DNA of 64,000 nt. Origin: an uncultured Methanomicrobiales archaeon (GTDB lineage: Archaea; Halobacteriota; Methanomicrobia; Methanomicrobiales; Methanospirillaceae). Every line of letters begins with the position of its first letter. The first letter of the stretch is position 1. Location: NCBI GenBank assembly GCA_963758915.1, contig CAVWXH010000009.1:192001-256000 (forward strand). The letters run 5' to 3'. Position numbers and translations under genes: made by a program. The notes below the pieces were generated by a model, which was not told where the DNA came from, made no database searches, and was given only the letters and a program-made list of their open reading frames with translations. Below, one piece after another: positions 11,710-62,414 of this stretch.

Positions 11710-11731
11710 GATAGTAACTCCACAAGGTACC

Positions 11732-40768: not shown

Positions 40769-40972
40769 CACGTGCTCCCCCCTCACATTCATAAATGTTC
40801 CATTCAGTCATCGGCGGTCCCTCGTGTGCCATCGTCGGTATTCAGAATTATATCAATAACCATTCTACCAGAATTCCCATGAACCAGCAGTTAGAGATTC
40901 AAATTATCTTGAAATTATATTGTCAGTGGAAGACATATATACCTTACCATTTCATATTAATTTGAATCTTTT

Positions 40973-41371: not shown

Positions 41372-41375
41372 ACAG

Positions 41376-44796: not shown

Positions 44797-45655
44797 TTAC
44801 AATCCTTTTCTTACGTAATAGAATATTATTACTCCCCCAATCAACCCAACCACAATAACAATTTCAGCAATCATGATCCAAGGGGAGGATGAATTATTTC
44901 CAGTTTTAATCGGTTGAGTTGATACCGGATTCACCACATTTTGAGGAGTTGCGGTCTCTTTCGGTGCTTCTTGGGTCGCTTTTTGATTGACAATGTTCTG
45001 AGTCACTACGGGTGTGACTACTGAGGTTTGAACCATTTGAGTAGATGTCGTAGTTGCAATGGTAGTTGTACCGCTGCCGGTAAATGAATAGCCTGAATAA
45101 CCTCCTCCTCCACCCCCTCCTGAATAACCTCCGCTGCTGCTGGTAGAGGTTGGTATTACGGTCCCACCTCCCTGGACTAATGAGCTGGGCATCGGTCACC
45201 GTTGGAACAACTACCCCCCCACCATCTGCATTCATCCGGATTGAATTAATTGAAATACCTGTTGTGCCTTGTGATACGCCACGAACAGTAATCGTCCCAA
45301 GAAGGATTTCGTTTGCACCAGGTTGAACCATTTTTGCAATATCAACACCACTTGTTCGAACCACTCCTTCTGACAAGTACGTGGTGTTATTCAGGGATTC
45401 CCAAGTGGGATATACAACCCCTGTAATCTCTGCAACACCCGGATTTGAAAGAATGAGGTTCAGGTTATATCCTGCAATTCCATCAGGTGCTGAATCGAGT
45501 ATTAATTTAAATTCTGTAGTCGTTCCCTGTGAAATTGTTCCCTGTGATGGCTCAATCATAATTGTTGCTGCAAATGCTGTTGATACAGTAATTATGGATA
45601 CTATCATCAGAGCCAGTAATGAGGTGTGAATTCTTTTTTTCATTATCTGCACCAT
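44797..45655 (-). CDS. Secreted cohesin-like protein with Gly/Thr linker and C-terminal membrane anchor (frameshift near 45180)
   Basis: Signal; LDSAPDGIAGYNLNLILSNPGVAEITGVVYPTW...LLGTITVRG...MNADGG; tail in ORF 44797-45192 ends in a TM helix + YYVRKGL. Confidence 0.75.
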
Positions 45656-45749
45656 GTGGAGCTTGATATTCCTATGAATAAATTTGGTTATCTTTTTTAT
45701 CGTTTCTCGGGAGAATTAATCAATCGAAAAAAAATCATTTGGATATTTC

Positions 45750-48700
45750 TCATCCAAGCACTATCCAATACAGCAGGACCAGATCATCGTAGTCGATATA
45801 GCCATTGTGGTTGTAGTCGTAGGGTGCAACACCCACATCGTATTGAGCTGAAATCCAGTCCATGTTCTGGTAATAAACGACAACATCATCGTAGTCGATA
45901 TAGCCATTTCCGTTGATATCCTCAATGAGGTAATCGCCGTTTGTATCGGTTGGTAAATTCGTGTAGCCTGGGAAAGGCTTCACAAGCGGCGTTACGTTGA
46001 TATAATTCTGCTTGGTGCTTGTTGCCTGTGTGTAGGCATTGCTAACTGTTAGATTCACGGTATAATGACCGGGCCCATGATACCTAGCCACCGGGTTAAC
46101 CTGCGTTGAAGAGACGCCATTACCAAAGGTCCACTGCCACGATGAGGGCACGGGATTACCAGTCGAGAGATCTGTAAAAGAAATATCTAGTGATACATTG
46201 GTAGAGGCCATTCCAGAAGTCCTGTTTGCGTTGAAGTCAGCAATGATAGGACTATAGACATTTATCTGCCCATTCATTATTGCCGGATTAACGATACCGC
46301 CACCATCTGCATCCATCGCGAACTGAACTGAGGGTAATCGGACTTGTTCCCGGTACATCCCCACGCACTGTCACAGATGCTATTACTGTGTTTAGAGAAC
46401 CGGCCTGAACCAGATGTTGAGATCGACAGCACTGATTTTTACAGAACTAGCGGGTAAGGCACTAGTATTTGAGAGCCCCACCCATGACGGATAGGTAACG
46501 TTCACAATCTTTCCAATATTTGGATCAGTCAGGGTAATTACCAAGTCATAGCCTGCGATACCATTGGGTAAGGAATTCATTACAAGTTGGTACTGTGCAT
46601 TTCCTGCCCGATGGGGATGTTGTCCAGCCACCGGGACCAGTGACAATGTTGGGGAAGAGGGTTGTGTACTAATTGGAGTCAGGGTGATTGATGCGACCTT
46701 TTTCACAACTTTGCCCCCTGTAACATTCTGCCCGACTAACCGGAGTGGCCAGCTGTCGCCGGTCTCCGCAAGAAGGGTTCCGTTAAGTGAATTGGCAATA
46801 ATGTAATTGTTGCTGCGGATTGTGTTCCTGCTGTTAACGGTAACAGAATACCCGTCTGTGGCAGTAATAGTGACGTTATACCCTGCCTGGGCCTTTGTTT
46901 CGTTGTAGGAGTTGCTTGAATGCTGGTCGGCATCGTCAACAAATCCGCAGAGGAACCAGAGTGGCATACCAGACCAGACACGGCTGCTGCTATCGGTGTA
47001 ATTGACCTCGTGGTTTGATCCGAACTGGCATGCAAGTGCCTGTTCAAAGTAGACCTTGCCGATGGTAGAGTTGAGTCCGCCGATATCACGCCCGTCAAGC
47101 ATGAGGTTCCAGTCTGATGCAGGTGACGAATAGATCTTCACCGTTGTGACCAGTTTTGCCGAAGTCCCGGCACAGGACGGGTAGTTGACCCCATTCTGCG
47201 TGTTATAGTGCCAGTATGCCGAGGGGAGTGACTCATGCATGTCCCACTGACCGTATACGTGGTCGTCGGGCATGAAGAAGAGCCGCATCCCGTCCTGGTA
47301 ACCCGGGACATACTGACCGTCCGCATACCAGGCGAGGATTGCATCTCCCTGGCGTGCCTGGACTGCCGGGTTTGTGTATATGGAGGAATAGGGCAGGGTC
47401 GTTTCGTACCCGTCACTCGCGATGAACTTGATATCGGTTCCTGATCCCATGCCACCGACGAGGTTACACAGGTCCATAACCCTGCTTCCCTTCACGGCAT
47501 TGGAAATCTTGTATCCGCCGGGGTATGTCTCCTCAGGGTCCCAGAGGTTGGTCGGGACCAGCGTGAGCCCTTCGTATTTGTACAGGGTTGTGCCATCTCC
47601 CACAACCGCGAGGTTCTGCTCCATCCACTCCCGGGTTACGGTTGTCTCGTTGACAATGGTAACGCCATCTGCTGCATATTTAATGATATGGAGCGGTGCT
47701 GCAGTCGTCGGAGTCTGGAACTCGGTAAGTTCAATCTCCACGACATTTCCGACACTGTTTCCACCGGTCGCACCTGATCCGACAAGCCTGAGTGGCCAGG
47801 GGGGATGACTGCCGGTGGTAGGTAATGCTGCACCATTCATCACATTGGCGAGAATGTAATTGTCATTCTTGCCGATCGCAGCGCTGGTAAACTCCTTGGA
47901 GTATCCATCCCCGGCTTTTACAATTACTTTGTAACCAGCTGATGCAGCGGAATCATTGAAACCGTTTGAACCATGCGGGATCCGGTCATCAACCCATCCC
48001 ATCAGGCGCCAAAGGGGAATACCCGTATACACATTGCTGCTGTCATCTGTATAGGTTGACTGGTGGTGGGCGATCCATTCTTCCAGTTCGGGTTGTGTGA
48101 TCACATCGCTTATCCGACCCTTAAGTGTCAGGCTGTACGCTCCGGCCGGGTAGGACGGGAGTCCTTCGAGGCGGATTGTGGTAATATTGCCGACACGCTG
48201 GCCATTCGATGTGGTTGCCGGACCGACAAGTTTGAGGTGGCCGTTCGATCCTGATAATGCGCTCCCATTTAACGTGTTGGCCACGATAAAGCCGTCGTTA
48301 TGGCTCACAACCTGGCTGGTGAAGGTCCTGTTGTAAGTCGCCAGCCATCACCCTGACGGTATATCCTCCTGTGGCACGGGTATCGTTAAACGTCCAGTGA
48401 CTCGATGGTCTCAATATCATCAACACTGCCGACCAGGTCCCAGAGGGGACACCAGTCCAGACTGATCCACCGGCATCAGTATAGGTCACATTATGGTGGC
48501 AGACAATTGCCTGTTCGAAATACTGCTGCGTGATAACGTCAGTTACATCCCCTTCCATGGTCAGGGTCCAGCCTGCTGCCGGTTGTGGTAGGCCGACGAG
48601 TTCAATTTCATTGATTCCACCGACCTGCTGTCCACCGAACACGCTCGATCCCTTGAGCATCAGGGGCCAGCAGGGTTTGCCACCAGGCGTAGTTGTCGGG

Positions 48701-51113
48701 AGGGCCGTGCCATTCAGGGTATTGACTACGAGATAACCGCCATCCCGGGCAATATCTGCGCTGGCGAGGCTCGTGTCCCAGTCAGCAGCTTTTACTTTTA
48801 CCGTGTACCCCTGGGTAGCGAGTGCGTCATTGAATGTGTAGTGACCACTGCTTTCCTCGTCATCAATCATGCCAACAAGGACCCAGAGCGGAATTCCTCC
48901 CCAGACACTGCCATTCGTATCTGTCCAGGTCACGTTATGGCCAGACGGGACACAGGCGAGTGCTTCCTCGAACTGGGCCTTGGTAATAATCCTGTTTACT
49001 TTGCCCTTCATTGAGAGGGAATAGTCGGTTGAAGGTTCACCACCGGTTGAGACCGTTATCAGTGCTGCAGCGATTGCATTTTGCGGGGTGACAGGTTTCA
49101 CACCGTAATAGAAATTGACATGATCGCCATTGGCAACGGTTTTTATGTTGAGCCCATCAGTGGAGGGGAATCCGTAATCATCCAGGGTAACCCCGTTTAC
49201 CTGGCAAATCCAGGTCTTTCCTGCTGTTTTATTATAGTCGTAACTCCCGATACCATCGAGCAGGAAGTACCCTTGAGTCCCGAAGTTCTTGTCCGAAATT
49301 TTGAAGGATAATCCCGCACCATTCAGCGCCCCGAGTGGGGTGGTTGTGTTGATATCATAGGATGCACCTGAATTGTATGCCACTTTATTGAAGGTTCCTG
49401 TGCTAAGGGAGACGGTGCCGCTATAGATTGTGTCCACTACCGGTCCCGCAGATGTGACATTAATATAGTTACTTTTCAGCGTTGAATTCGAGCCTGCGGC
49501 ATTGCTTACCGAGAAGTTCACCGAATACACGCCTGCAGCGGAATACGTGTATACCGGGCTTTGGATTGTACTGTCGATAGTCCCATCGTTATTGAAGTCC
49601 CATGACCAGGTGGACGGGGACCCTGATGATGCATCAGTGAACTGGACCTGTAGTGGCGCAGCCCCCATTGTCATATTTGCGGCGAAGTCAGCGACAGGTG
49701 CGATCGGGGCTGCAGGGAGCCCAATCAGTCGGATTTCGGTGATATTTCCCACGCTGTTGCCACCAGTCGGACCGGAACCAACCAGTTTCAATGCCCACCA
49801 GATTTTTGAAGGGTTTGTCGGATCTGTAAAAGGAATTACTGTGCCGTTAAGCGTGTTTGCTACGATATAATTGTTATTGCTGGCAATGGTGGAACTTGTA
49901 AAGGTCTTGTTGAACCCATCCGCAGCCCTAACCTGGACTGAGTAACCCATAGAAGCCCGCGTGGTGTTGAAATTGTATCCGATTATCAGCGTCATCAACT
50001 GCTCCGACAAGATACCACAGCGGAATACCCTGCCAGGTGCGCTGATTAGTGCTATCTGTCCAGCTGGCACTCGGGCCACTTGTAACGATTGCTTCAATTT
50101 GTGCTTTTGTGAGAGTAACTGAATGATCGCCGGTTAACAGGAGAGAGTATTCAGGGGAGACTGGAGAATTAACAACAATATAACCGGTTTTGATCTCGCT
50201 GTCGGTCCCCTGCACATTTGTTACCGTTAGATTTACGGTGTAAGTCCCCGCGGTAGTGTACGTGTAAGCCGGGTTCTGGATCGTGCTGTCAACTGTCCCG
50301 TCATTGGTGAAGTCCCAGGCATATGATAGTGTGGATGTTCCGGTTGATGCATCGGTGAACTGGACAGTAAGAGGAACAGTTCCACTAACCGTGTCCGCAG
50401 AAAAAGCTGCCACCGGTGCGACAGGGGCGGGATCATTGCTGTAAATAAGTATCCTATTGGTGTTCTGCACCGAAAGGCCTGTTGCACTTGGTTGTCCAGG
50501 CTGGTAGTAATACCAGAATGCTTCAGGATAGGTTTCGTGCATATCCCAGAGCCCGAATACATTGAGTCCCCAGGGGTTGGTGGTAGTATCAGCAAAATTG
50601 ACATTGCGCATACCCTCGTTATATGAACTGTCCACATAACCCAGATCAGCTCTGTACCATGTCAGAACAATTGGTCCTGCACGGGCAGGTGGTGAGTAAA
50701 CGCTGGAATATGCAAAAAATTTGGAGAAACCGTCAGATCCCATGAGTGTGACATTGTAATCGCCAGAATCCATACCCCCAACGAGATCACAGAGATCCTT
50801 TACATTCGTGCCTTTGGCAGCACCAAAATCTTTTGTCAATATGGCCGGATCGTTCTCTTCCGGATTCCATTTATTGGTGATACTTGCGTTAAATACAGGT
50901 CCCTGCACATAATAATGAGTGAAACCGTCCCCATATACAGGTAGGTTAGTCTCCATCCAATGGAAGTCAACCGTTGTCTGGTTCAGGATTGTTGTCCCGT
51001 CATTTGCATATTTAATGATCTGTACTGAAGTGGTCCCCGCTGCACTCGCTTGGGCGACAAATAACGTCATTACCACAATTAAAATGATAATTGGTGTCCA
51101 TTTTCCTTTCATT
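45750..51113 (-). CDS. Giant (~1800 aa) secreted multidomain surface protein, split by several frameshifts
   Basis: ORFs 49928-51133, 48298-50097, 46392-48308 and 45750-46364 break mid-domain. Order: signal, A, PKD, B, PKD, DUF4430-like, B, B, B, A, B, cohesin, PKD, dockerin (EDINGNGYIDYDDVV...YDYNHNGYIDYDDLV). Confidence 0.75.
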
Positions 51114-51174
51114 TTTTGATAAACCCCCACCATGAGATCGTGGATTTATGGAAATTGTATCAATACGAGTGACT

Positions 51175-51219
51175 AAAAATATTGTGTTTTATTTTTTAAC
51201 TATGTTAAATTAGTTAATT
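51175..51219 (-). promoter_or_regulatory. Putative promoter/operator of the giant surface-protein gene
   Basis: AAAAATATTG plus GTTAAATTAGTTAATT, nearly identical to elements at 62480-62535. Confidence 0.4.
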
Positions 51220-51277
51220 ATACTAGAATAATTTGAAATAACAAATTACTAATAAATATAGATAAAAATCTGTTAAA

Positions 51278-52369
51278 TTGTTGAAAATACCAACAGGAGA
51301 TAGATTGAAACATAGAGTTGCTTTTATTGTGTTAATTATTTGTTTATTACTCGGTAGTGCCTTAAGCGACCGACCGGCAAACGCGACAAACGAAGTCCAG
51401 GGAATTATCACGAGCACGAACATGGAATGCCTGGGAATAACAACTGAAACAGATCTCATTTCTTGGTCCGTGGAAGCCCCGGCGCGCCCGAAAGACTATG
51501 CAACAATAAAATTCGGGATAGTCGGCCTTCCACCAAACCTCTATTCTGCAATTCGCCGGGTTTCAGATGGAACAATCGTAGCGAAAACAAGTGGTAGCGG
51601 GACAATAGCATCAACTCTTAACGGAGACCTCTACCAGTTCGGGTATACCAATGGAATCATATTCTGGCCTGTAGAAAGTGGAACTACGTTATCCGACGGA
51701 TCTGCTTACAACGCACAGTATGATCTTACCCATGGATTCGGCATCGGTAATTCGTTAATGGACCCTGAAATGGTGTATTATTCGGCAGGTTACAATGAAC
51801 AGACCGTTGCAGTGTCAGGAAAAACTACCTACATTAAGTCTATGGCGTTATCAACCGCCAATAAAAATTCTGGCGAGAGCAATATCAAGTCCACAAAAAG
51901 TATCCAGTTTGTCGGGACCAATTCAGGAAGGATAACTTCATCCGAAGACCTCCTTGTTGACGGATCAGGTACCTGGTCACGAACCGGAGACAGTAATCTC
52001 TGTCCCGTTTGGCTCGCAGGATTCGGAATTTATTCCAGCCTTTTGTAATATTGCACAGGCAGGAAGTTCTATTGATATGAATCTCGTGTCCATGACAACC
52101 GATATAGATAGCAGGTTTATAGCAGCCAATTCCGCTGATTCCAGTGGTACTTAATTATGATATCAGTGCAGGGGGTTTAACACGGTAATGGGTATTCTCC
52201 TGCAACCGGGTCAGTTTCTGCATTTATTAAGGTCCATACGCAGGAAGCGAGGGGTAATATCTCCAAAAAGTCAGAGGATCTTTCATATTCTGAAATATCT
52301 TCAGCGAACGGACTCATCAAACAATTTACCAAGAAAATGAATTATCAGTCAGGGACCAGACTGAATTAA
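51278..52369 (+). CDS. Secreted Ser/Thr-rich beta-type protein, possibly Methanomicrobiales sheath-protein-like (2-3 frameshifts)
   Basis: Signal; EVQGIITST...SGKTTYIKS...LCP|FG...PAFCNIAQAGS...; manual continuation GSVSAFIKVHTQEARG...EDLSYSEISSANGLIKQFTKKMNYQSG, TAA 52367-52369. Confidence 0.55.
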
Positions 52370-52427
52370 CATCCTTTTTTATACCCTTTTACCGTTTTAC
52401 TGTGACTGCGGTAGATCTGGATATTTT

Positions 52428-53795
52428 TCAGACAAAAATTCGGACTTGTTTTCCAAAAACCGGAGTTGGTCTCTTAATAAAATGACAAAGATTTATTTCC
52501 TGCGATGGCGGGATCTTTGTTATCAGCACCCTTTCTCCCACCATCCCTTCCGGTAACACAACAATCTGTTTATCTTTCACCTCTGCGACCGGGACAAACT
52601 CAAGCAAAACCTGTTGGGAATTCACAGTTACCCTCATGTAACCGAGTGTGTTCTCCCGGCTGTTGACGTAACCGGGGGGTTTGTCCGCGGAAAGTGCGTA
52701 GGAAGGCGCACCACCGGTCGCGACCGTGAAATAATGGACCCCGTTCACCTGGAAATGCTCATACGCATGGACATGGGCAGAAAAGACAGCATCGACCCCC
52801 CCAGCGTTGAATACTGGCCCCCATTTTTCCTGTATATCAGCATAACCACCCCAGTGATTGACCTCGGAGGTATAGAGCGGATGGTGAAGAAAAACGAAAT
52901 TCCATGTTACTTTATTGTCAAGTGTGGCATTCAGCCATGAGTCCTGTGAAGATGCCACAACCGGCGAAACAGCATTACTATTGAGGGCGGTAAAGCGGGC
53001 ATCACTGCACATGAACGAATACCATGGGAGGCATGCCAAATCGTTCCTGATATACGGATAAGATTCCCTTCATGGTTCCCGGGAACCGGGTAAAAGGTCG
53101 TATTGGCAAGCATGGGACCGGCAGCCTCAAAAAAACGCCCCCATTCACCCTCATCGGCAGGGTCATTGACGAGATCCCCGGTATGCACCACAAAAAGACA
53201 ATCCGGTTCCTTCGCAATCCGTTGCTGCAACTAATGCATGGTGGGTCGACTGGTTCCACCTGGGCAGTTGTTCCCGTGTGTCACCATAGACGATAAACGT
53301 GAACGGACCATCGAGGGACAGAGTCCGGAACGAATAATTCCCCGGGTTGTTCCCGATCCAGTACGAATAGCGCTGACCTGGCTCGAGGTTATTCAGTTGT
53401 ACATGGTGAAGTATCGATGGGTTTTCCTCTGATACACTCTGGTCGGATATTCCAGGTGTTTTGATACCTGAATGGGCAAAACCAACACGGCCGATTGAAG
53501 GTTCCAAAGTCTTCCAATGGAGGATGGTGGAATTGTGAGTAGTGTTTGTAATGTAAGGTCCCCATACTATCACTTCATCCCCTTGGGACATCCCTTCAAA
53601 GTTGCCTATCACCGGATCTGCATATGCAACAACTGGAAAAAGGATTGTAAGAAGAATCAGGGAAATTAGCATTCCCCTCCATTGGTATGCATACCAGCGC
53701 CCGTTGTAATTCATAGAGAGAGAATTGTATTTTTTACCACACTTTTGATCTGCGGGTAAATTATCCGGAACTGGAAGGTCGGTATTCATACCCAT
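52428..53795 (-). CDS. Secreted purple-acid-phosphatase-like metallophosphoesterase (frameshifts near 53222 and 53045)
   Basis: FN3-like N-domain (HHVQLNNLEPGQRYSY); GDTR, HTGDLV, GNHE, HHPLY, AHVHAYE spread over three ORFs. Confidence 0.8.
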
Positions 53796-53804
53796 CCCCT
53801 CACT

Positions 53805-56800
53805 TCAGGCCACACTCCCTTTTTCCTTAAACATCACGACCTCGCGGTGGCTCTCACCGGGTTTTACATTGACTTCGATCGTCCGGGTTTCACCATTACG
53901 ACGCACAGTTACCTGGTGTATACCGAGTGAAAGGTGTTTGAAGGTATACGGTGTGATTTCTCCTGTCACAATCCCGTCAATCAGGATATCGGCCGCAGGG
54001 GGCAGCTTTCAAGGGTAACCGGGCCGCTGGCATACGTATCCAGGATAAATGATACAGGTTTGCGGACAACTGGACTATCGGTGATCGGTATCTCCGTGAT
54101 GGTTTCTCCGGGAATATATCCCGGCAGGGTGACAATTATCCGGTGCAGCCCTGTTGAAAGGTTCGGAATAACCGCAGGGGTAGTATACCCCGACCACAGG
54201 CCATCAACAAATATTTCACCACCGGGCGGTGAAGATTCTACCGGTAATTTGTAGAGGGGGGGGCTTGAAACCGGAACCGCAATACTGTTTTCGTCCGAGG
54301 TAATAGCAAACGGCCTGTATGAAAGGTACGCCCCTTCACGAATAACCGTAAAGAAATCATCAGGTCCGGTACATTCAATTTCAGCCGGGGTCTTCCTGAT
54401 CGGATAATACCCGTTTACCGTGAATGAATACGAGGTATTATCAGGGGAATTAATCCGGATTTTTCTCGGAATATTGCCCGAGATCAGGTTAAAATCAGCA
54501 GTAGTGACCGCATCAGCATATACCCAGACCCGGAGGGATCGTGATACAGTGGTCTTGTCCATCTCTGATGTCTGTCTCACTTCGACAATGTGAATGCCTT
54601 CTTTCAGCCCGTACACTACGGCAGGAAGGACCGCCTCAATTTTTTTCGTATCCACCCTGAGCTCTGCATCGGCCGGGTACGAGGTGATGTAAATACCCCC
54701 GCTGTGTGAGGCTGGTTTGCGTTGCAATGTTGTTCCGGGGTTATTTACCACATTTGGCTCCTTTTTTACTGCAATCACCGGGGATTCTGTTGGGTACCCT
54801 GTTACCGGAACCGGAGTTATTAACGCAGAATTTTCCACCGGGAAAGAATCATCGCCCGTGGGAAATTCTCCTCGTAATGGATCTGCATGAGGGATCGATT
54901 CCGTTGAGTTATCGGAGTGGGCGTCTTCAATAATTACATCATTAACTGAATTCCGGTCAAGGGGAACCATGTCGCCAACAAGGGAGAATAGAAACACGAA
55001 TACCCGGTCGAGCGTATCAAAACCCCACGAAGAAAATTCCTTCGAGGTGGGTCCAGGTATTTTTTTCACCGGAACCGGCCCCGGGGTATTCCGGACAGGA
55101 GTAGTGCTTACAACAGGGTTTGTTTTTCCTTGAGAACTGCTCACGTTTTCAGACTTCCCCGGTACCGTAGTATTGACTGAAGTCTGGGCCGGTACAGGTT
55201 TTTTCACCTGTCCATTCATAGTAAAAATCGCTATCCGGGTCTCACCATAGAGTACTGATGATTCATTGAGTATTGCCTGGATTGATGTATGCACTTGTGA
55301 TCCTGCCTGGGGAGCAGGAAATGATATGGCAGCGGTCCGGACAGGACTTTTCGGGTCTGTAAATGTTCCGGGAAATGTCTCACCATTTATTGCTGCAAGG
55401 TAACGGGACTGGGTATCATACACCATACTGGTACTGATAAATTGGAGGTCTGCGTGAGAAAATGCGGATCCTGATGGTTCAAGGTAGAATTCAGCGGTCG
55501 TCTCCGCATCGTTGTTTTCCCTGCCGGGCGGTGCAGAAATCACATCTGCCCCTTCGTGGAGCCAGTACGAGATAGTGGGTCCATTTTCATTTCGGGAAAC
55601 TACAACAAGCGCCGCACCTTCAAGTATACATGAAGTTCCAGGTGAGTTGTCCATGATAAGTTTTATTGTCTGCCCCGGTTTGGTAGAATTCGGCAGGATA
55701 AAGCAACTCGTTGTTACTAAACCGGATGTTGCATTCAGGCCATGGTCCCTGTATACACGGTCTGGGTTGATCGACGTTGTTCCCTGCACCACGATGAAAG
55801 ATGGATCGGCTCCTGCTGCCCGGGTTATATCATAACCCGCTGATGAAAATACATAGAGCCGGATACATGTGATGTCCCCGGTCGTTGCCAGTAACGGGAG
55901 GGAAAATGTCTGTTCACCCCCACCTTTTACCGGTCCTTCCAATACCTTAACAGGCATTATCGAGATATTGCCACGGATATTCTCATGCCTGTAAAGGTCA
56001 AGTGTGGACCCCTCTGTGCCATATACGGTATTCTTATCTGATCCTAAACCATCAGATCCAGCTTCAGCTCCGCTTGCAGGGCCGGGAGACGTCTTTTGCA
56101 ATGTAAAATCTGCAACGGATACCTGGTTAACAATCACATCAACCACCAGCGATTCTGGGATCTCGTATTCCTGTTTTTGTACATTCACAACATGTGGACC
56201 CAAAGAAACACCCGTAATCTCCGCGGGAGTGAGCTTGCCGGTGTCCTCGTCATCAACGAGTATCGTTGCGCCAGCCGGCTCTGATGTAACACGGATCGTT
56301 CCCGATGGTTCTTCCTGGCTGAAAATTAAGAATTTCTCCCAAAGACTGGACGGAGACCCCGGTGGTGGTGGGATATTTTTCATTCCCGTTATAATAGTAA
56401 TACCAGTATTTTTCGGCAGCACTTTCATGCCAGTCCCAGGCCCCCATCGCATGAATCCCCCACGGGTTGACCGAAGTATCGGCAAGGAAGACGAGGCGCA
56501 TCCCGTCATTGTACGAAGGAACATATCCCTTATCTGCCCGATACCATGCGATGACCATCGGTCCCTGCCGTGAAGGGGGCTCATACACATTTTCGTAGGC
56601 AAAAGTTTTAGAAAACCCATCTGTTGCTGTCAGTTTCAGTTCATCACCCGAAACCATACCCCCGACAAGGTTGCAGAGATCCCTGACATCGGTACCTTTT
56701 ATTGCACCCATGTCCTTCTCCTGGACATTGGTATCTTCCGCTATGTTCCACCGGTCTTCAGGCCTATCCACAAATACCGGCCCCTGGAGATAGTAATGAG

Positions 56801-56996
56801 TTATCCCATCACCTTTCACAGGCAGGTTTTGCTCCATCCAGCGGTAATCAATCCTTGTCTCGTTGAGGACCGTTGACCCGTCAACCGCATATTTTACGAT
56901 ATGGAGCTCCGTAGACGCGCCGGAAACGGTAATAGTCCCAAATGACAGCAGGAAAAGACATGTGAACGAAAGAAAAAACCACTGGTTGTGCTTCAT
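53805..56996 (-). CDS. Secreted protein: A domain + PEGA repeats + DUF3344-like domain (frameshifts near 56326 and 54000)
   Basis: ORF 56253-56996 (A domain) joins 53981-56620 (VTSEPAGATILVD, ITSYPADAELRVD, ESSPPGGEIFVDG PEGA; SYWLHEGAD); last PEGA continues to TGA at 53805. Confidence 0.72.
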
Positions 56997-57097
56997 GACA
57001 TGGACCCAAACCTGCGGGATCAGAGAATGATCCCGATACCTGCTAGGTACTCAGGGATTGCAATAAAAGAATATTATCTTTTAATGTCGTAAGTTAA

Positions 57098-58198
57098 TCA
57101 CATTAATTTAATTTCATTATCCGGAGCCGGTGCAACTGGCAGTACGAGCACGTGGTCTCTGGAGAATGACAACCGGACCGCATCGCCATTCTGAAATACA
57201 GGTTGCTCCTTGGTTTTTCTTGGAATCGTAACGCTCATTGGCAGAGGTCCTTCGACAGAGAGAGTACAGGTATAATCAGTGATTATCTGCGAGGCAACGG
57301 TCCCCTCAATAATATTATCCTGGTCTTCCGGGACCCGGCCATTTTTATGGATAGCAATATCCCCGGCCCGGATGCAAACCACCACCCTGCTACCAGGGGG
57401 AAATATTTCCTCTGCGGTAATGGTTACCCCATGGACTTCGATAGAACTCATTCCAACGGTCTTTGCGTGGACAATTCCCTCAAAAATATTTTCAGTCCCG
57501 GCAATCACCGCGGCTCTCAGTGTTTTGGGATGTGAAAAAACATCAGTGGGACGACCGGTCTGAACGATAGAACCGTTGTCGATGAGTGCCACTTCATCTG
57601 CCAGGGAGTATACTTCATCCCGTGAATGGCTTACCTGGAGGATCGTAAGACCCTGGTCACGATGAAGGTCCCTCAGTCCCTGCATGCACTCCTCGCGGGA
57701 AACAGGGTCCAGGGCCGCAAAGGGCTCATCCAGGAGCAGTACAGTCGGATCTATTGCCAGGGCCCTGGCAAGGGCCACCCGTTGTTTTTCACCGCCACTT
57801 AACGTCGTGGGGAACCGGTCAGCCAGGTGGGATATCCCGAACTGTTGCAGCAACCCGCAGACTTTTTTATCCTGATCAGAGGGAGATTTTCCCTGCATTT
57901 TCATACCAAATGCGACATTCTTAGTAACCGTGTAGTGGGGAAACAGGGAATAGTCCTGGTAGACAAACCCGATGTTTCGTTCTTCCGCACGGGCACCGGT
58001 GATATCACTACCATCCAGGAGTACCCGCCCTGAACCAGGGACCTTCAGGCCTGCAATAATCTCGAGGATAAGGGTTTTTCCCGCACCGGACGGCCCCATC
58101 AGGAAATAATACCTGCCTGATGTAACATCGAGGTTGATGTCATTGAGACTGAATACACCCCTTTGTAACGAGATATGTTCAAGCCCGATCATCAACAT
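57098..58198 (-). CDS. wtpC: Tungstate/molybdate ABC transporter ATP-binding subunit
   Basis: GPSGAGKT, LSGGEKQRVALARAL, LLLDEPF; C-terminal TOBE-like region. Confidence 0.85.
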   Translation of the reverse strand: MLMIGLEHISLQRGVFSLNDINLDVTSGRYYFLMGPSGAGKTLILEIIAGLKVPGSGRVLLDGSDITGARAEERNIGFVYQDYSLFPHYTVTKNVAFGMKMQGKSPSDQDKKVCGLLQQFGISHLADRFPTTLSGGEKQRVALARALAIDPTVLLLDEPFAALDPVSREECMQGLRDLHRDQGLTILQVSHSRDEVYSLADEVALIDNGSIVQTGRPTDVFSHPKTLRAAVIAGTENIFEGIVHAKTVGMSSIEVHGVTITAEEIFPPGSRVVVCIRAGDIAIHKNGRVPEDQDNIIEGTVASQIITDYTCTLSVEGPLPMSVTIPRKTKEQPVFQNGDAVRLSFSRDHVLVLPVAPAPDNEIKLM

Positions 58199-59006
58199 CC
58201 CCCTTTTTCTTCAGCAGTACCCTGAACAGGACGAATATTATCCCGCATATCACAATCATTACCAGTGCAACGCTCATGGCCTCCGAAAGCCCTCCGGAAG
58301 CGAACCGGTAATAAATCAACGTCGATATTACCATCGGGAAGTAGGCAATCATGATGACAGCGGCAAATTCCCCGATCGCCCTTCCCCACGCGAGCAACGC
58401 CCCGTAAGAGATATGGCGGGTGGACAGCGGGAGGACTATATGCCAGAATGCACGGAACCGTGAGGCACCAAGCGTTCTTGCGACATTCTCCAGCCGGACC
58501 GGGACCGTTTCAAATCCCTCGCGGACGGTGTTGACATAATAGGGAATTGCGACAAATACCATCGCGACCACTATTCCGGGATAGGCATCTTCGAATACGA
58601 TTCCTACGTTACCAAGCGGTGCTCCTATTATTCCCTGCGACATGAAGAGAAGATAGACCATGAGGCCTGCGACGGTATGCGGGAGGATCAGCGGTAAATC
58701 GATGATACTTTCAACCAGACCTTTACCCGGGAATGTACTTCTTGAGAGTGCGTAGGCGAGAGGGGTCCCGAACAGGATTAGAATTACCACGGCATTCAAC
58801 CCTGCAACCATAGTAATCCCCAGGGTGAGAAGAACAGAGGGATCGGTTACAACCCCTGCAAGATGAGCAGGGTTTGATAATTCAGGGATTGCAATGGAGA
58901 GGATGGCGAGGACAATGAACAGTACAAGGAGCCCGCCGATTAACCAGAAACCAAGGATACTCCTGTCAAAGACACCTCGTTTCACGTTCAGGGGTGCTTT
59001 CTGCAT
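58179..59006 (-). CDS. wtpB: Tungstate/molybdate ABC transporter permease
   Basis: DLPLILPHTVAG, LENVARTLGAS, WGRAIGEF, IAYFP. Confidence 0.88.
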   Translation of the reverse strand: MQKAPLNVKRGVFDRSILGFWLIGGLLVLFIVLAILSIAIPELSNPAHLAGVVTDPSVLLTLGITMVAGLNAVVILILFGTPLAYALSRSTFPGKGLVESIIDLPLILPHTVAGLMVYLLFMSQGIIGAPLGNVGIVFEDAYPGIVVAMVFVAIPYYVNTVREGFETVPVRLENVARTLGASRFRAFWHIVLPLSTRHISYGALLAWGRAIGEFAAVIMIAYFPMVISTLIYYRFASGGLSEAMSVALVMIVICGIIFVLFRVLLKKKGDVDDRA

Positions 59007-59010
59007 GGGG

Positions 59011-60039
59011 CTACTCCCGGATGATTTCTGTCTTGTTTAACGGGGCTGGCCATCCCGGTCTCCCCTTCCGGGCTTCACTCGCGATGTAGTCCACAAATTC
59101 CTTCGCAATTTCCGGGTGGGAAGCACTATAGGGTATCGTGACTGCGTAGACAATCGGTACTCCTACCCGCTCGGTTCCAATCGAGCTGAACCGCTGGAAC
59201 CCGAGAATAACAGTTACATTGCGATAGTTTCTGGCATACTCAGGTGATCCAAGATGGATGGATGACGGAAGACGTATCCACCGGAGGTTCTTCCCTTCCG
59301 CCACGCTGCGGTATTCGAAGGCATAATCGATACCTCCAGTCTCCAGAAGAGAAAGGAGGAAGATACTCCCGTCCCGGACAACCACGTGATCATCCGAAGG
59401 TTTCACAATCTCGGGGAGTATAATTGTCGTAACCTGGCCAACGGTCGTGACCGGTAGCGGTGGATCAAAATGGTCACCGATAAGAGTCCCGAATAGTTTA
59501 CTGGTGTGGTATTCGTTTTCTGCCAGCTTTGCGACCATCAATGCGCGATACCCGGCGGCGTCAAGCATCGGGTTTGATAGTCCCACCTTCACATCAGGCC
59601 GTGAGAGGACCACGTACCAGTTTTCCTCCGTAATTTCACTTGCATACCTGCTCTTGTTGGTGAAGGCGATGACCATCTCGTTTCCACCAAACGGCAGGTA
59701 CCAGTCGGTGTAGTTGCGTCCGTCCCCCCCGGCTTTCCTGTACATCAGGTCCGGTATCAGGGACTCATCCGCTACGGCAATCACGTCCCCTGGGCGGTGC
59801 AGGTCCGTAACCTGCCGGATGACCTGGATACTCCCATGCGGTTCCAGCTGGACATCGACATCGGGGTGAAGGGCTTCAAATTCTTTCTCGGCCTCCCCGA
59901 ACGGGATGACAAGGCTCCCGGCACAATAGACTTTCAGGGGGACCTTCTCCTTCGCCGTCCCGGTACACCCTGCCGTCCATGTAACAAGAACGACGATAAT
60001 TGCGAGGATAAGGATCCAGGACATGGATAACGCCTTCAT
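59011..60039 (-). CDS. wtpA: Tungstate/molybdate ABC transporter substrate-binding lipoprotein
   Basis: AGC lipobox; AGSL, HGS, SNPMLDAAGYRA, DYAFEYRSVA, IVYAVTIP. Confidence 0.9.
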   Translation of the reverse strand: MKALSMSWILILAIIVVLVTWTAGCTGTAKEKVPLKVYCAGSLVIPFGEAEKEFEALHPDVDVQLEPHGSIQVIRQVTDLHRPGDVIAVADESLIPDLMYRKAGGDGRNYTDWYLPFGGNEMVIAFTNKSRYASEITEENWYVVLSRPDVKVGLSNPMLDAAGYRALMVAKLAENEYHTSKLFGTLIGDHFDPPLPVTTVGQVTTIILPEIVKPSDDHVVVRDGSIFLLSLLETGGIDYAFEYRSVAEGKNLRWIRLPSSIHLGSPEYARNYRNVTVILGFQRFSSIGTERVGVPIVYAVTIPYSASHPEIAKEFVDYIASEARKGRPGWPAPLNKTEIIRE

Positions 60040-60623
60040 TTCCGGTGGACTTCGATTCGGTCTACCCATTTGACCCAGGCACTTCCTTCTGTGACGATCC
60101 CAGGCGAGTCCGAAACGATTGCGACCCTCGCCGGCCCCCCGTCGTTGTATGTGACGGGTTTTCCATCCTGCTCGTACATGAGGATGACCTTCAGCGGCGG
60201 GGACGGGACTTCACGGAGTGACTCGTTGAACGTAACAAACCCTTTTCCGTTGAGTTGTCCCGCATCGAAGACCCAGAGGTACCCATCTGGTGCATACACC
60301 CATACCTGGTCTTTTTCACCGATCCCGCCAACAAGTGCCGCAAGATCACGGAGGTCCACACCTTTACAGGTATAGGGTCCGAACCGGATCCCGGTTGTGG
60401 AGACGGCGTACCCATTGGCCGTGACTGCTGGGAGTGCCTGAAGATCTGAAAGTGTCAGCACTTTTTCAGTCGTGCCATTGAGGGTGAGATGCCAGTTGCT
60501 GATTGAGGGATCTTCTGCCGGTATGGATTTGCCGATAGCGTTTCCGGTACACCCTGACGTAAGGACAAGGCCCATGCAAAGGCAGGCGATCACGAGGAAA
60601 CCCAGGATCTTCTGTCCGGGCAT
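60036..60623 (-). CDS. Lipoprotein with a molybdopterin-oxidoreductase (sulfite-oxidase Moco-fold)-like domain
   Basis: SGC lipobox; LTLSDLQALP...KGVDLRDL...APDGY...LMYEQDGKP...GGPARV...WVKWVDRIEV. Confidence 0.75.
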   Translation of the reverse strand: MPGQKILGFLVIACLCMGLVLTSGCTGNAIGKSIPAEDPSISNWHLTLNGTTEKVLTLSDLQALPAVTANGYAVSTTGIRFGPYTCKGVDLRDLAALVGGIGEKDQVWVYAPDGYLWVFDAGQLNGKGFVTFNESLREVPSPPLKVILMYEQDGKPVTYNDGGPARVAIVSDSPGIVTEGSAWVKWVDRIEVHRK

Positions 60624-61543
60624 CAGAATCTCCTCCTCATGAACAGGATGCCGGTAATAATGAGAGCCGACGGGACGAGCAGGAGGGAGGAGGGGCTTTT
60701 ATTCGTTGGGGGGGCAGGATATGTTTCGTCCATTTTCGAACTAAACGATTTTGGCAGGAGATCTGTTGAACCTTGATAACCCCCTTTGTATACCCGGACT
60801 TCATCCACCCACTTGACGGTATACCCGCTTGTCGAAGGATAGAGATTTTCGAACAGGTGAATTGATTCGGGCGGCATTACTGCACGCATGTCCTGGTTGC
60901 CGAACACATGTTTCCTGCCCGGGTTTGTTGAATTATCGGCAAAGAACACGAGTCGCATCCCTACATAATAGTCTGGAGGGTACCCGGTTCCCTGCCGTTC
61001 CCCTATCGTCGATTCATTACCGTTGAACCAGGTGACGGTGACAGGACCCTGCCGGGGTTCCGGTTGGTAAATGTTTTGGTAATCAAGTTCCACATGGTAA
61101 CCGTCACCGGATTTTATCATAACCTGGTCTCCGGGGGCCATTCCCCCGACCAGGTCACAGAGGTCTTTTACCGCTGTCCCTTTGACTGCCCCCATATCCT
61201 TGAAATTCGTAGTCTCGTTGGTATCCCATTGTGCTTCCTTTGATTCTACAAAGACCGGGCCCTGGTGATAGTAATGGGTGACCCCGTCACCCTGCACAGG
61301 GAGGTGGGACTCCATCCACCGGGTACTGACCGTCGTCTCATTGACGACCATCGTCCCGTTATCCGCCATTTTTATTACATGGAGCGAAGAGGTCGGTTCA
61401 CCCGCAACCGGGAATACGAGGATTGCGATTCCAGCGAGGAGAATCAGCAATAGGAGGACCCCGGTCCCATTACATCTCCCATGCAGGGAAATCGAACGAT
61501 TCCGGACGATATTTGCAGGTAATTGTAGTGATCTATGAGGCAT
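60623..61543 (-). CDS. Secreted A-domain protein with C-terminal sorting/TM anchor
   Basis: LHVIKMADNG...WMESHLPVQGDGVTHYYHQGPVF...KDMGAVKGTAVKDLCDLVGGM; tail KSP + hydrophobic helix + RRR. Confidence 0.8.
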   Translation of the reverse strand: MPHRSLQLPANIVRNRSISLHGRCNGTGVLLLLILLAGIAILVFPVAGEPTSSLHVIKMADNGTMVVNETTVSTRWMESHLPVQGDGVTHYYHQGPVFVESKEAQWDTNETTNFKDMGAVKGTAVKDLCDLVGGMAPGDQVMIKSGDGYHVELDYQNIYQPEPRQGPVTVTWFNGNESTIGERQGTGYPPDYYVGMRLVFFADNSTNPGRKHVFGNQDMRAVMPPESIHLFENLYPSTSGYTVKWVDEVRVYKGGYQGSTDLLPKSFSSKMDETYPAPPTNKSPSSLLLVPSALIITGILFMRRRF

Positions 61544-61544
61544 G

Positions 61545-62414
61545 TTATCGTCTCCCCGATGCGAAAAACAGGGTAATCCCAAGTGCGGCCAGGACGAGAG
61601 GCAATCCAAAACCGGGAGCCTTTCCCGGTGTACCATGACTTGTCGCGGCTGGTTGTGAGGGTTGCCCCGCCTGGTAAATCGTTACCTCTGAAATAGACTG
61701 TACTGAAAGACCGGTTGTGGTCGGGTACTGCTCATTTCCCTGTGTGTAATAGTACCAGTATTCCGGGGAAGCAGAATCATGCCAGTCCTGGTTCCCAAAA
61801 GCGTGAAGTCCCCATGGATTGGTGGAAGTGTCAGCCAAAAAAACGAGACGCATTCCGGTGGTATAGTTTGGTACATATCCTTCGTCTGACCGGTACCAGG
61901 TAAGGACCATCGGGCCCTGTGATGATGAGTAATTATAGACATTCTCATAGGCAAATGTACGAGAAAACCCATCAGATGCTTTTAGCCGCAGGGTATCCCC
62001 CTGGCCCATTCCCCCGATGAGCTCGCAGAGGTCCCTGATATCGGTCCCTTTTACTGCACCCATATCCTTTTCTTTGACGTTTTTATTCTCTTCGGGGTTC
62101 CAGCGCAGGACTTCCTCAACAGCAGGGTCTGCATTATCAACGAACACCGGCCCCTGGTGATAATAGTGGACGACACCATCTCCCTGTACGGGCAGGTTCT
62201 GTTCCATCCAGAGGTAATCCAGGTTTTTTTCGGCAAGGACGGTCTTTCCATCAGCTCCTATTTTCTGGAGATGGAGGCTTGTGGTTGAAGCGGACACCCC
62301 TTGTGTGATCAGTAAAAATACGACGAGAAAGACCAGGGCGTGAGTATAGTTCCTACCGGACCTTACTATGAAAAAATTATCGTTTTGAGAAGATTTTGTA
62401 ATTTGGACTAGCAC
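61545..62414 (-). CDS. Secreted A-domain protein with PGF-CTERM archaeosortase signal
   Basis: Same A domain; tail KAPGFGLPLVLAALGITLFFASGRR; GGAGGT upstream of the GTG. Confidence 0.8.
   Translation of the reverse strand: MLVQITKSSQNDNFFIVRSGRNYTHALVFLVVFLLITQGVSASTTSLHLQKIGADGKTVLAEKNLDYLWMEQNLPVQGDGVVHYYHQGPVFVDNADPAVEEVLRWNPEENKNVKEKDMGAVKGTDIRDLCELIGGMGQGDTLRLKASDGFSRTFAYENVYNYSSSQGPMVLTWYRSDEGYVPNYTTGMRLVFLADTSTNPWGLHAFGNQDWHDSASPEYWYYYTQGNEQYPTTTGLSVQSISEVTIYQAGQPSQPAATSHGTPGKAPGFGLPLVLAALGITLFFASGRR

Follow-up and report, generated by a model that had tools for sequence, protein, structure and literature searches.

A conserved cassette of sulfite-oxidase-fold surface domains around WtpABC as a candidate extracellular module of tungstate/molybdate uptake

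What is an array of secreted, repeat-bearing proteins doing around the genes of a tungstate/molybdate importer? The window analyzed here, a stretch of 64,000 nucleotides from an uncultured Methanomicrobiales archaeon, holds wtpABC genes flanked by five copies of one domain (A), five copies of a second domain (B), and one membrane-anchored PF00174 protein (the anchor), all on the minus strand. The original prediction had described about 11 Moco-fold-like domains in genes co-directional with wtpABC, which agrees with both our count and the shared strand, and had read them as a surface scavenging apparatus feeding the ABC transporter. We find that reading reasonably well supported and favor it: the locus is probably an extracellular accessory module of tungstate/molybdate uptake that feeds WtpA, as suggested by the fold of A and B, a gene order linked to WtpA across phyla, riboswitch control in bacterial homologs, and a predicted interface between the anchor and WtpA. 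The cassette appears to be a hitherto undescribed means of capturing scarce W/Mo extracellularly, and we found no description of it in the literature searched.

Gene content and frame breaks of the locus

The genes and domains are as follows.

61545..62414, minus strand: small A-domain protein 1, 289 aa; open reading frame with signal peptide, A domain, and PGF-CTERM-like tail
60623..61636, minus strand: small A-domain protein 2, 337 aa; A domain and C-terminal TM tail
60036..60623, minus strand: membrane-anchored PF00174 (SUOX-fold) protein, 195 aa, the anchor; PF00174 43.8 bits
59011..60069, minus strand: wtpA, tungstate/molybdate-binding protein; TIGR03730 322 bits
58179..59006, minus strand: wtpB-like ABC permease; best NCBIfam match NF040839 (WtpB), Pfam BPD_transp_1
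57098..58198, minus strand: wtpC-like ABC ATPase with TOBE domain; NF040840 (WtpC), ABC_tran, TOBE_2
53829..56996, minus strand: A-PEGA-DUF3344-PEGA surface protein (Pfam), A domain at 56319-56915
52428..53795, minus strand: secreted calcineurin-like metallophosphoesterase with purple-acid-phosphatase N domain (Pfam)
45750..51133, minus strand: giant surface protein, ~1790 aa; A, B, PKD, and dockerin-like loops
44797..45655, minus strand: secreted protein with C-terminal TM tail and Gly/Ser/Thr-rich linker
61671-62285, 60785-61393, 56319-56915, 50438-51034, and 47127-47702, minus strand: A domains, 192-205 aa, n=5
B1 49714-50152, B2 48586-49026, B3 48156-48573, B4 47715-48140, and B5 46671-47114, minus strand: B domains, ~145 aa, in the giant gene only

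The A domain had been said to occur five times in four proteins, and the coordinates confirm this, the giant gene holding two of the copies. The five B copies claimed for the giant protein are likewise present in its gene, but, as went unremarked in the original prediction, this gene is not one open reading frame in the assembly: the protein is spread over several frames (49928-51133, 48298-50097, 46392-48308, and 45750-46364), and B1 and B3 are each cut by a frame break. Read across the frames, it consists of a signal peptide, A, PKD, B1, PKD, a DUF4430-like segment, B2, B3, B4, A, and B5, followed by a shared domain of no known family, PKD, and dockerin-like EF-hand loops. An intact Methanolinea ortholog of 1709 aa lines up with it in three colinear segments at 49-65% identity, and relatives have open frames of 1659-1928 aa. 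The A-PEGA-DUF3344 gene, which is broken at ~56332 and ~54003, is colinear with an intact 1064-aa ortholog over three frame segments; the phosphoesterase gene is also broken by frame shifts, and the 44797-45655 gene is broken at ~45190. At several of these breaks, short-read contigs of other samples differ from the assembly by 1-base indels, with indel positions at 48337, 48408, and 48445 in the giant gene and at 53025, 53060, and 53221 in the phosphoesterase gene, and with a 1-base indel at both 56332 and 54003 in four of four short-read runs, which points to the breaks being probable assembly errors.

The proposal that the surface proteins use different anchors stands in part. Inspection of the sequence suggests a PGF-CTERM tail (APGFG...RR) and a TM tail at the C terminus, neither confirmed by an HMM, but the "dockerin" of the giant protein consists of EF-hand matches only (27.4 bits). 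The supposed lipoprotein overlapping wtpA is the anchor, which matches PF00174 and whose gene shares 34 bases with wtpA, but its lipobox is imperfect, and most orthologs have an N-terminal TM anchor instead. By reading of their N termini, the window proteins and bacterial orthologs have signal peptides of Sec-type appearance, and no consistent twin-arginine motif (S/T-R-R-x-F-L-K) is visible in either set, as had been anticipated. Small A-domain protein 1 has no Pfam or NCBIfam match and has 860 homologs of similar length. No family was returned by a Pfam search for the 44797..45655 protein, whose homologs occur in only 7 of 137 loci; it contains a domain of ~130 aa that recurs near the C terminus of the giant protein, and we conjecture that it might serve as a tether for the latter. 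The conserved metallophosphoesterase, whose metal-binding motifs (GDT, GDLVND, GNHE, HHP, and AHVH) are present in a three-frame reading, is an additional cassette member that was absent from the original prediction.

Fold of the A, B, and anchor domains

The A copies are 45-66% identical to the reference copy at 56319-56915, with 42 invariant columns, and because all strong A-domain matches of the 2.38-Mb genome lie in this one locus, chance repetition is excluded. Searches of Pfam and NCBIfam gave no match to A, and an A profile found nothing relevant among PDB sequences. Its structural model (pLDDT 96.3) returned SUOX-fold chains as all 10 of its best Foldseek matches. When structures were compared (VIA), the A model matched PruR (7kom; Z 13.0, rmsd 2.9, 132 of 134 residues) and chicken sulfite oxidase (3hbg; Z 12.4), with only SUOX-fold chains above Z 6 and the next unrelated fold at 5.8. 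B (44.6 bits) and the anchor (43.8 bits) both score above the PF00174 cut-off of 24 bits, and the B model (pLDDT 91.3) matched residues 150-312 of chicken sulfite oxidase (3hbg) with Z 15.5 and rmsd 2.3 A, and PruR with Z 13.4. The proposed Moco-binding fold is thus borne out by PF00174 for B, by Foldseek for A, and by Z-scores to the SUOX fold for both domains, and A, as judged from its model, is a new family of this fold. Both domains cover only the core of the Moco domain (chicken sulfite oxidase 150/151-310/312), so that they are without its N-terminal part and the dimerization domain. The SUOX signature segments DGY, PxR, and VKW are retained.

The same fold is found in sulfite oxidase, SorA/SorT, SoxC, and YedY/MsrP (PF00174), and the PF00174 matches of B and the anchor would fit true Moco/Tuco-dependent extracellular oxidoreductases of the sulfite oxidase family, co-transcribed with the transporter that supplies their metal. 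Several observations make such enzymes improbable here. In contrast to the SUOX-family Moco enzymes, the cassette domains comprise the core only and are arranged in tandem. No Cys column reaches at least 90% conservation in alignments of 45 A sequences or 22 anchor orthologs, and in a gap-free comparison, the anchor has S/T where its canonical paralog has the Cys of HCVEGW (the genome encodes one such PF00174 protein elsewhere, at 127 bits). A Cys that may correspond to the Mo-binding one does occur in 21 of 26 aligned B copies, but B4-type copies have none. Cofactor-loaded extracytoplasmic enzymes require Tat export, and the cassette proteins have no consistent twin-arginine signal. Nor did Pfam identify any heme, cytochrome, dimerization, or other redox partner domain in the archaeal cassette, and up to 11 copies per locus would be atypical of an enzyme.

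The closest structural neighbor of A is PruR (PDB 7KOM, 7KP2, 7RKB, and 7KOS), which also matches B strongly. PruR is, like A, a secreted, small, cofactor-less SUOX core without the Mo-binding Cys; the two do not match at the sequence level, and A is ~65 residues longer and carries an aromatic-rich insert. According to passages in PMC11194511, this secreted SUOX-fold protein, which does not have the Mo-binding Cys, binds pterins and is a single-domain regulator of the c-di-GMP enzyme DcpA in Proteobacteria. Unlike PruR, the cassette domains are arrayed on surface proteins whose genes are linked to wtpABC, and a Pfam scan of the window cassette and three bacterial loci identified no GGDEF or EAL gene that could supply a DcpA-type partner.

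Conservation of the cassette and its riboswitches

The A domain heads proteins containing adhesin-type domains (PKD, Big_2, SLH, Flg_new_2, and malectin), and only 10 of 50 sampled A-domain representatives also carry PF00174, so A may be a binding module of wider use. These fusions to many stalk and anchor domains, together with the reported presence of DUF3344 in a fibrillar-adhesin survey (PMC9210967), would suit envelope or adhesion proteins of an ordinary kind, or a metal store or buffer at the surface, whose adjacency to wtpABC is mechanistically meaningless. We give this explanation very little weight, since the genome's A copies all lie in one locus, the gene order persists across Bathyarchaeia, Bacillota, and Chloroflexota, riboswitches directly precede the surface-protein genes in bacterial loci, and an interface between the anchor and WtpA is predicted with high confidence, as described below.

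The cassette is shared by many other strict anaerobes. Its recurring order begins with the giant A/B protein and continues with the phosphoesterase, the small A protein, the PF00174 anchor, and WtpABC, and it is found in methanogens, ANME-1, GoM-Arc1, Bathyarchaeia, syntrophic Bacillota, and Chloroflexota, including Syntrophomonadaceae, Moorellaceae, Dehalococcoidia, and Anaerolineales. Across archaea and bacteria, the anchor is followed directly by WtpA in 107 of 137 loci, and loci of at least 15 kb contain WtpA in 78 and the phosphoesterase in 65 of 86 cases, these counts being non-independent because the loci are interrelated and partly overlapping. Most loci have an A-domain gene immediately upstream of the anchor, an arrangement towards which our second scan was biased by its seed, the small A protein adjoining the anchor. 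The expected linkage of A-domain genes to wtpA is also seen among 20 related Methanomicrobiales genomes having A, where wtpA lies inside or beside the A cluster in 15; in one A-rich genome (G016), the sole wtpA is 1.7 Mb from the A cluster. One bacterial variant (L058) has genes for an ECF-type transporter, FMN_bind, and Fer4_5 in place of WtpAB. ECF-type transporters usually import vitamins, and the gene content of L058 may point to a vitamin-like ligand or to a role in redox chemistry.

In the bacterial loci L055 (73.5 bits) and L058 (61.6 bits; cut-off 36), a Moco/Tuco riboswitch (Rfam RF01055) precedes the giant gene by ~200 nt. A riboswitch model that we built (R1) and searched in 40 bacterial and 20 archaeal loci gave 23 matches in 17 of the bacterial loci, in 15 of which an A/B/PF00174 gene directly follows the match. 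The other 23 bacterial loci had no match, several of them despite ample upstream sequence, and there was no match in the window or the 20 archaeal loci. Support for the suggested W/Mo regulation comes from the bacterial homologs, in which these sequence matches place the cassette under riboswitch control. The bacterial homologs resemble the mod, tup, wtp, and moa genes of the RF01055 regulon in sitting behind this riboswitch, and differ from the rest of that regulon in that the first controlled genes encode surface proteins.

Riboswitches also bear on the oxidoreductase explanation. Regulski et al. 2008 (PMC2408646) report that Moco riboswitches also precede genes for Moco-using enzymes, and that the genes behind P3-less riboswitches in S. 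wolfei, an unexplained exception, encode putative sulfite oxidases; in L058, moreover, the FMN_bind and Fer4_5 genes adjoin PF00174 proteins. However, an operon shared with an uptake system under cofactor-riboswitch control fits acquisition better than cofactor use, and with the Cys, export, and copy-number findings above, we regard dedicated enzymes as highly improbable.

Predicted docking of the anchor on WtpA and a possible relay

WtpA scores 322.1 bits against TIGR03730 (cut-off 242.75) and aligns over its full length with the solved M. acetivorans MA_0280 (3k6u, 3cfx; 219 bits), including the segments AGS, HGS, SNP..D..GYR, and ETG of these class-III binding proteins, which places it among the WtpABC/ModABC/TupABC importers. 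The best NCBIfam matches of WtpB (NF040839, 260.9 bits) and WtpC (NF040840, 309.6 bits) fall below their equivalog cut-offs of 340 and 440. To our knowledge, these importers consist of three transporter parts only, and we found no extracellular accessory proteins for them in the literature searched. When co-folded, WtpA and the anchor scored 0.88 (best control 0.00), a mark that 58 of 80 solved complexes attained, against 2 of 110 mismatched pairs; at least 92% of the contacts were common to three runs, and partner pLDDT was at least 92. The predicted interface comprises hairpin S75-I79, the DGY motif (113-115), and E179-S181 on the anchor, and G51, H78-G79, S165-N166, D170, and R293 on WtpA. 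The anchor is thus predicted to dock on WtpA, facing its cleft.

Could the cassette instead salvage cofactor? The SUOX-like domains might bind molybdopterin, Moco/Tuco, or a precursor released from dead cells, with the phosphoesterase trimming phosphate and either the metal being freed for WtpABC or the pterin being imported by another route. The pterin binder PruR as nearest structural neighbor of A, the conservation of the phosphoesterase, and the ECF-type transporter that replaces WtpAB in L058 are consistent with such salvage, as is the description, in PMC2408646, of Moco/Tuco riboswitches as sensing the cofactor rather than the metal. However, the transporter linked to the cassette is the oxyanion-type WtpABC, the cassette has no conserved pterin transporter, and in the predicted complex the anchor directly faces the cleft of WtpA. 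We therefore consider salvage unlikely, though a good deal less so than the enzyme or adhesin explanations.

For an accessory module of W/Mo uptake, the explanation that we favor, we propose the following mechanism. Sec-exported surface proteins, tethered at different envelope depths, would carry the 11 cofactor-less, truncated sulfite-oxidase-fold domains (five A, five B, and one anchor). These would bind scarce metal extracellularly, as oxyanion, thio-oxyanion, or metal on released pterin cofactor, and pass it inward to the membrane-anchored SUOX-like protein docked over the WtpA cleft, and WtpBC would then import it; the co-encoded secreted metallophosphoesterase would probably help free or bind the ligand. 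W/Mo binding by the domains, ligand relay between them, and this role of the phosphoesterase are what we infer. A more far-reaching reading, which we hold as quite possible but short of probable, is a W/Mo relay without a secreted metallophore. In it, arrays of truncated, cofactor-less SUOX-fold domains, a fold that seats the metal-pterin cofactor within enzymes, would have been repurposed for extracellular metal capture, whether as tungstate, as a thiometalate, or as necromass-derived cofactor, and would hand the metal on through differently tethered proteins to a membrane-anchored, WtpA-plugging adaptor. Judging from the models, the hairpin that bears the Mo-binding Cys in the enzymes may instead bear an invariant Asp (GDG in A, TD in B). 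The cassette would have spread by gene transfer among methanogenic and alkane-oxidizing consortium partners. If true, the relay would explain how W/Mo demand is met at trace, sulfide-scavenged concentrations.

A functional analogy is offered by Isd/NEAT, the heme relay of Gram-positive bacteria, in which surface proteins anchored at various depths likewise display repeated ligand-binding domains, the series terminating at an ABC importer's binding protein. The fold and the ligand differ, there is no NEAT domain, and transfer between domains is here only proposed. The DNA immediately beyond the window carries mobB as well as genes for a second WtpA-type binding protein, a MOT1-type molybdate transporter, and a ModBC-like pair.

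Gene content of the cassette and integrity of its reading frames

The source genome has 2.38 Mb in 18 contigs and is 94% complete; the closest homologs of the window proteins are from Methanoregulaceae and other Methanomicrobiales MAGs. The listed cassette genes, which encode A- and B-domain surface proteins, a membrane-anchored PF00174 protein (the anchor), a secreted metallophosphoesterase, and WtpABC, run from 62414 down to 44797, all on the minus strand, with one plus-strand ORF (51278-52048) intervening.

Table. Cassette genes and the intervening ORF, in window coordinates
61545-62414, minus: small secreted protein
60623-61636, minus: small secreted protein
60036-60623, minus: membrane-anchored protein, 195 aa (the anchor); PF00174, 43.8 bits
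59011-60069, minus: wtpA; TIGR03730, 322 bits (cut-off 242.75)
58179-59006, minus: wtpB-like; best NCBIfam match WtpB, under the equivalog cut-off
57098-58198, minus: wtpC-like; best NCBIfam match WtpC, under the equivalog cut-off
56996 down to ~53829, minus: A-PEGA-DUF3344 protein; PEGA and DUF3344 (Pfam)
53795-52428, minus: secreted metallophosphoesterase; purple-acid-phosphatase N and Metallophos (Pfam)
51278-52048, plus: ORF of 256 aa with a signal-peptide-like N terminus, between the giant gene and the phosphoesterase gene; no Pfam family
51133-45750, minus: giant gene; PF00174 at 44.6 bits on a B-rich piece; PKD
45655-44797, minus: small anchored protein; last cassette gene

Measured against the copy at 56319-56915, the A copies show 45-66% identity, and all five share 42 invariant columns. 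A profile built from them and run against the whole genome found exactly the same five places and also weakly matched the anchor (E = 4e-4), and the five B domains all lie within the giant gene; the 11 related domains counted in the original prediction (five A, five B, and the PF00174 anchor) are therefore correct. Pfam and NCBIfam gave no matches for three proteins or pieces consisting mainly of A domain. The phosphoesterase retains its metal-binding motifs. In the giant protein, a 134-aa domain between the second PKD domain and the second B domain (49039-49440, minus) matched DUF4430 at 17 bits, under the cut-off of 23.8; DUF4430 was above cut-off in one representative of the A family, P0127. 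Reading the domain common to 44906-45655 and the C-terminal part of the giant protein as a cohesin found no support in Pfam. The one canonical PF00174 protein of this genome is encoded far from the cassette (contig C3:214162-214851); it has 229 aa, scores 126.6 bits, and carries an N-terminal TM segment and an HCVEGW motif that includes the Cys.

In the assembly, the giant gene is scattered across three frames, with a brief cluster of stop codons, and the reading frames of the A-PEGA-DUF3344 gene, the last cassette gene, and the phosphoesterase gene are also disrupted. Errors in the assembly probably explain these breaks. From end to end, the giant gene runs colinear with an intact 1709-aa Methanolinea ortholog (49-65% identity in three colinear segments), relatives have open frames of 1659-1928 aa, and another few-contig genome of the same genus shows the same kind of fragmentation. 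We also compared the window with short-read contigs of four other metagenomes, which are 92-100% alike to it and differ from it by a single-base indel at several breaks: all four runs do so at 56332 and 54003, two at 48337 and 48445, one at 48408, and one or two at 53025, 53060, and 53221; among the short-read alignments listed, the breaks near 50000, 46380, and 45190 had no such indel. For these reasons, we treated the cassette genes as intact in nature. We also weighed pseudogenization of the giant gene but think it unlikely, given its whole-length colinearity with an intact ortholog and given that the covered breaks are missing from the contigs of other samples. Indel errors seem to be spread throughout the assembly, since at 43202-44652 (plus) two ORFs of 194 and 283 aa together make up one MFS transporter and 1-base indels lie beyond the cassette genes at 52003, 52136, and 52404.

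Fold of the A and B domains and extent of the A family

The original prediction had proposed a Moco-binding-like fold for both repeated domains, and comparison of their models with solved structures bore this out, as both align to sulfite-oxidase-fold (SUOX) chains (Z 12.4-15.5). The A domain, modeled by AlphaFold2 with a 45-sequence alignment, reached a pLDDT of 96.3 and a pTM of 0.91. When this model was searched against the PDB with Foldseek, the best 10 matches were all SUOX-fold chains (nitrate reductase, PruR, and sulfite oxidase), with SorA, SoxC, and YedY further down; E-values for SUOX-fold matches ranged from 4e-4 to ~0.04. Structural alignment placed the A model on PruR (7kom) with Z 13.0 and an rmsd of 2.9 Å over 132 of 134 residues, and on residues 151-310 of chicken sulfite oxidase with Z 12.4, the next unrelated fold scoring 5.8. 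The B model (pLDDT 91.3) aligned to residues 150-312 of chicken sulfite oxidase with Z 15.5 and an rmsd of 2.3 Å and to PruR with Z 13.4, the next unrelated fold scoring 5.1. Because both models align only to the core region of sulfite oxidase, A and B are each predicted to be a bare Moco-domain core, about the size of PruR. Profile searches against PDB chains were much less informative: the A profile found nothing relevant (its sole match was a TATA-box protein, E = 1.5), and the B profile and the anchor alone gave weak matches to the C-terminal part of sulfite oxidase (E = 0.03-0.2). Since hhalign joined A and B over just 24 columns with 35% probability, their kinship rests on the fold and on the weak match of the A profile to the anchor.

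The same fold might mean that the surface proteins are true Moco enzymes. We regard this as very unlikely, because the domain is truncated, a conserved Cys is missing from A and the anchor, export appears to be Sec-type, and a redox partner is lacking; the cassette proteins fail defining features of SUOX enzymes. Neither the 45-sequence A alignment nor the alignment of the anchor family contains a Cys column conserved at 90% or more, and Cys is present in 21 of 26 B copies, those of the B4 type being without it. The closest working parallel to the A and B domains is PruR, which uses a secreted, cofactor-less SUOX fold for binding, although the cassette proteins are not members of its family by sequence or by operon. 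The PruR study describes this secreted fold, which has no Mo-ligand Cys, as binding small pterins, not Moco (PMC11194511).

Among 1.84 billion proteins, the A profile found 623 cluster representatives (50% identity, E ≤ 1e-3), in which the A domain usually directly follows the signal peptide. We examined domain partners in 50 of the 150 representatives listed, taking each third: PF00174 occurred in 10 (one under cut-off), PEGA and/or DUF3344 in 13, PKD in 14, SLH in 3, and a phosphoesterase in 2, and the A domain stood without any other domain in 3. Small A proteins are named "hypothetical" or "argininosuccinate synthase" in public records, the latter also in the ESM Atlas; this label is carried by the window protein at 61545-62414 and by the homologs P0022, P0039, P0053, and P0059. 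It looks like a propagated annotation error, as neither fold nor sequence supports the name.

Conservation of the cassette and its riboswitches

A domains occur in 20 of 41 related Methanomicrobiales genomes and are clustered every time. In 15 of these 20, wtpA lies inside the A cluster or at most ~2 kb from it; one has only the anchor and wtpA together on a small contig, two have them non-adjacent, and two are too fragmented to judge. Two scans of species-representative genomes returned 462 and 497 A-encoding stretches, and we annotated 137 fetched loci, using profiles built on the proteins encoded in the window. WtpA directly follows the anchor on the same strand in 107 of the 137, and the 86 loci of at least 15 kb contain WtpA in 78, the anchor in 80, the phosphoesterase in 65, and B domains in 62; these counts include mutually related loci, overlapping loci kept separate, and a second scan that was seeded with an anchor-adjacent A protein. 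The recurring order is giant A/B protein, phosphoesterase, small A protein, anchor, WtpA, WtpB, WtpC. It is found in archaea (Methanomicrobiales, Methanocorpusculum, Methanosarcinales including GoM-Arc1, ANME-1, and Bathyarchaeia) and in bacteria (Syntrophomonadaceae, Moorellaceae, other Bacillota, Dehalococcoidia, Anaerolineales, and Chloroflexia), and Pfam annotation of three bacterial loci confirmed the order, with SLH domains replacing the archaeal anchors.

The Rfam model for the Moco/tungsten-cofactor riboswitch (RF01055, cut-off 36 bits) matched two of the fetched loci, L055 (73.5 bits) and L058 (61.6 bits), in each case ~200 nt upstream of the giant A/B gene and on its strand. Both RNAs are without the P3 stem. 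A loose regular expression for the Moco motif produced numerous spurious hits among the archaeal loci and was therefore replaced by a covariance model, R1, trained on 11 candidate RNAs; one candidate from the expression, in locus L080, looked wrong in the alignment and was left out. R1 returned 23 matches (11 training sequences, one duplicate locus, and 11 new), with rough E-values of 3e-15 or less, in 17 of 40 distinct bacterial loci, and found no riboswitch in the other 23. The RNA, sometimes in tandem, stands directly upstream of an A, B, or PF00174 gene in 15 of the 17 loci and before a permease gene in one. P3 is present in some of these RNAs and absent in others; the alignment shows this for the training sequences, and for the remaining RNAs it was judged by length. 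R1 matched none of the 20 archaeal loci searched, and neither R1 nor Rfam matched the window. On this sequence evidence, the surface proteins of bacteria appear to share a cofactor-sensing regulon with the transporter. That the surface proteins serve a purely structural or adhesive role is most improbable; both the conserved gene order and the riboswitch speak against it.

In the 2008 riboswitch report, P3-less RNAs are associated with tungsten-cofactor metabolism, and those before "putative sulphite oxidase" genes of S. wolfei are an unexplained exception (Regulski et al., PMC2408646). The cassette may account for these tungsten-type riboswitches. Four Chloroflexota loci (L075, L089, L097, and L102) have two tandem Moco-type riboswitches, ~100-120 nt apart, before the first A-domain gene. 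L058 itself is a variant cassette from a Pelotomaculum MAG (20-17400), in which several SLH-anchored PF00174 proteins with FMN_bind and a Fer4_5 membrane protein are followed by the P3-less riboswitch, the giant A/B protein, and the phosphoesterase, and an ECF-type transporter (two ABC ATPases and CbiQ) stands where WtpAB would be.

Predicted docking of the anchor to WtpA and a possible capture route

To our knowledge, no complex of the anchor-WtpA type has been solved. We co-folded mature WtpA with the anchor, using 22 orthologs of each and three controls. The pair scored 0.88 (runs 0.89, 0.88, and 0.88) and the best control 0.00; in calibration, 58 of 80 solved complexes attained the mark for such scores, as did 2 of 110 mismatched pairs. 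At least 92% of contacts were common to the three runs, with partner pLDDT of at least 92. On the anchor, the predicted contacts are the hairpin S75-I79, the DGY motif at 113-115, and E179-S181; on WtpA, they include G51, H78-G79, S165-N166, D170, and R293, which lie in or beside invariant columns of the WtpA alignment and in segments that presumably line the anion cleft of class-III binding proteins. The model supports binding of the anchor to WtpA and gives a picture in which the SUOX-like pocket of the anchor would face the mouth of WtpA.

We consider the surface proteins a probable accessory part of W/Mo acquisition, and with somewhat less confidence we favor a route in which their domains capture a ligand that is handed over through the anchor to WtpA. 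The surface A and B domains would catch W/Mo species outside the cell, and the anchor would pass them on. The captured species could be a free oxyanion, a thiometalate, or a pterin-bound metal or cofactor, although we think the last of these unlikely. The phosphoesterase could release a phosphate-bearing cofactor or bind the oxyanion itself; enzymes of its kind are inhibited by tungstate and molybdate.

Such an arrangement resembles Isd heme uptake, in which a surface relay feeds an ABC importer, by analogy only. As far as our literature searches show, the known W/Mo uptake systems have no components beyond a binding protein, a permease, and an ATPase, so a conserved, cofactor-regulated extracellular capture layer would, if confirmed, be a new element of trace-metal acquisition. 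Neither the cassette nor the A domain was described in any paper that these searches returned. Dependence on W/Mo-pterin enzymes, formylmethanofuran and formate dehydrogenases among them, is common to hydrogenotrophic methanogens, anaerobic methane and alkane oxidizers, syntrophic fatty-acid oxidizers, and Dehalococcoidia, and in the habitats of these anaerobes sulfide strips W and Mo from solution. Capture by the surface proteins might matter for methane production, for syntrophy, and for digesters limited by tungsten; the large unnamed A family would also gain a function, and the uses of the sulfite-oxidase fold would widen past enzymes and PruR-type sensors.

Upstream of the cassette (39806-42496), the window encodes an ArsP-type permease, an ArsR-family regulator, and a DsbD-like membrane protein. 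The Mo/W theme extends past the right end of the window: positions 256001-268000 of the contig hold mobB, CorA, a MOT1-type MFS molybdate transporter, a 578-aa fused binding protein (PBP_like_2 and a WtpA-type SBP; TIGR03730, 254.6 bits), and a second permease/ATPase pair, which is ModBC-like and has a TOBE domain.
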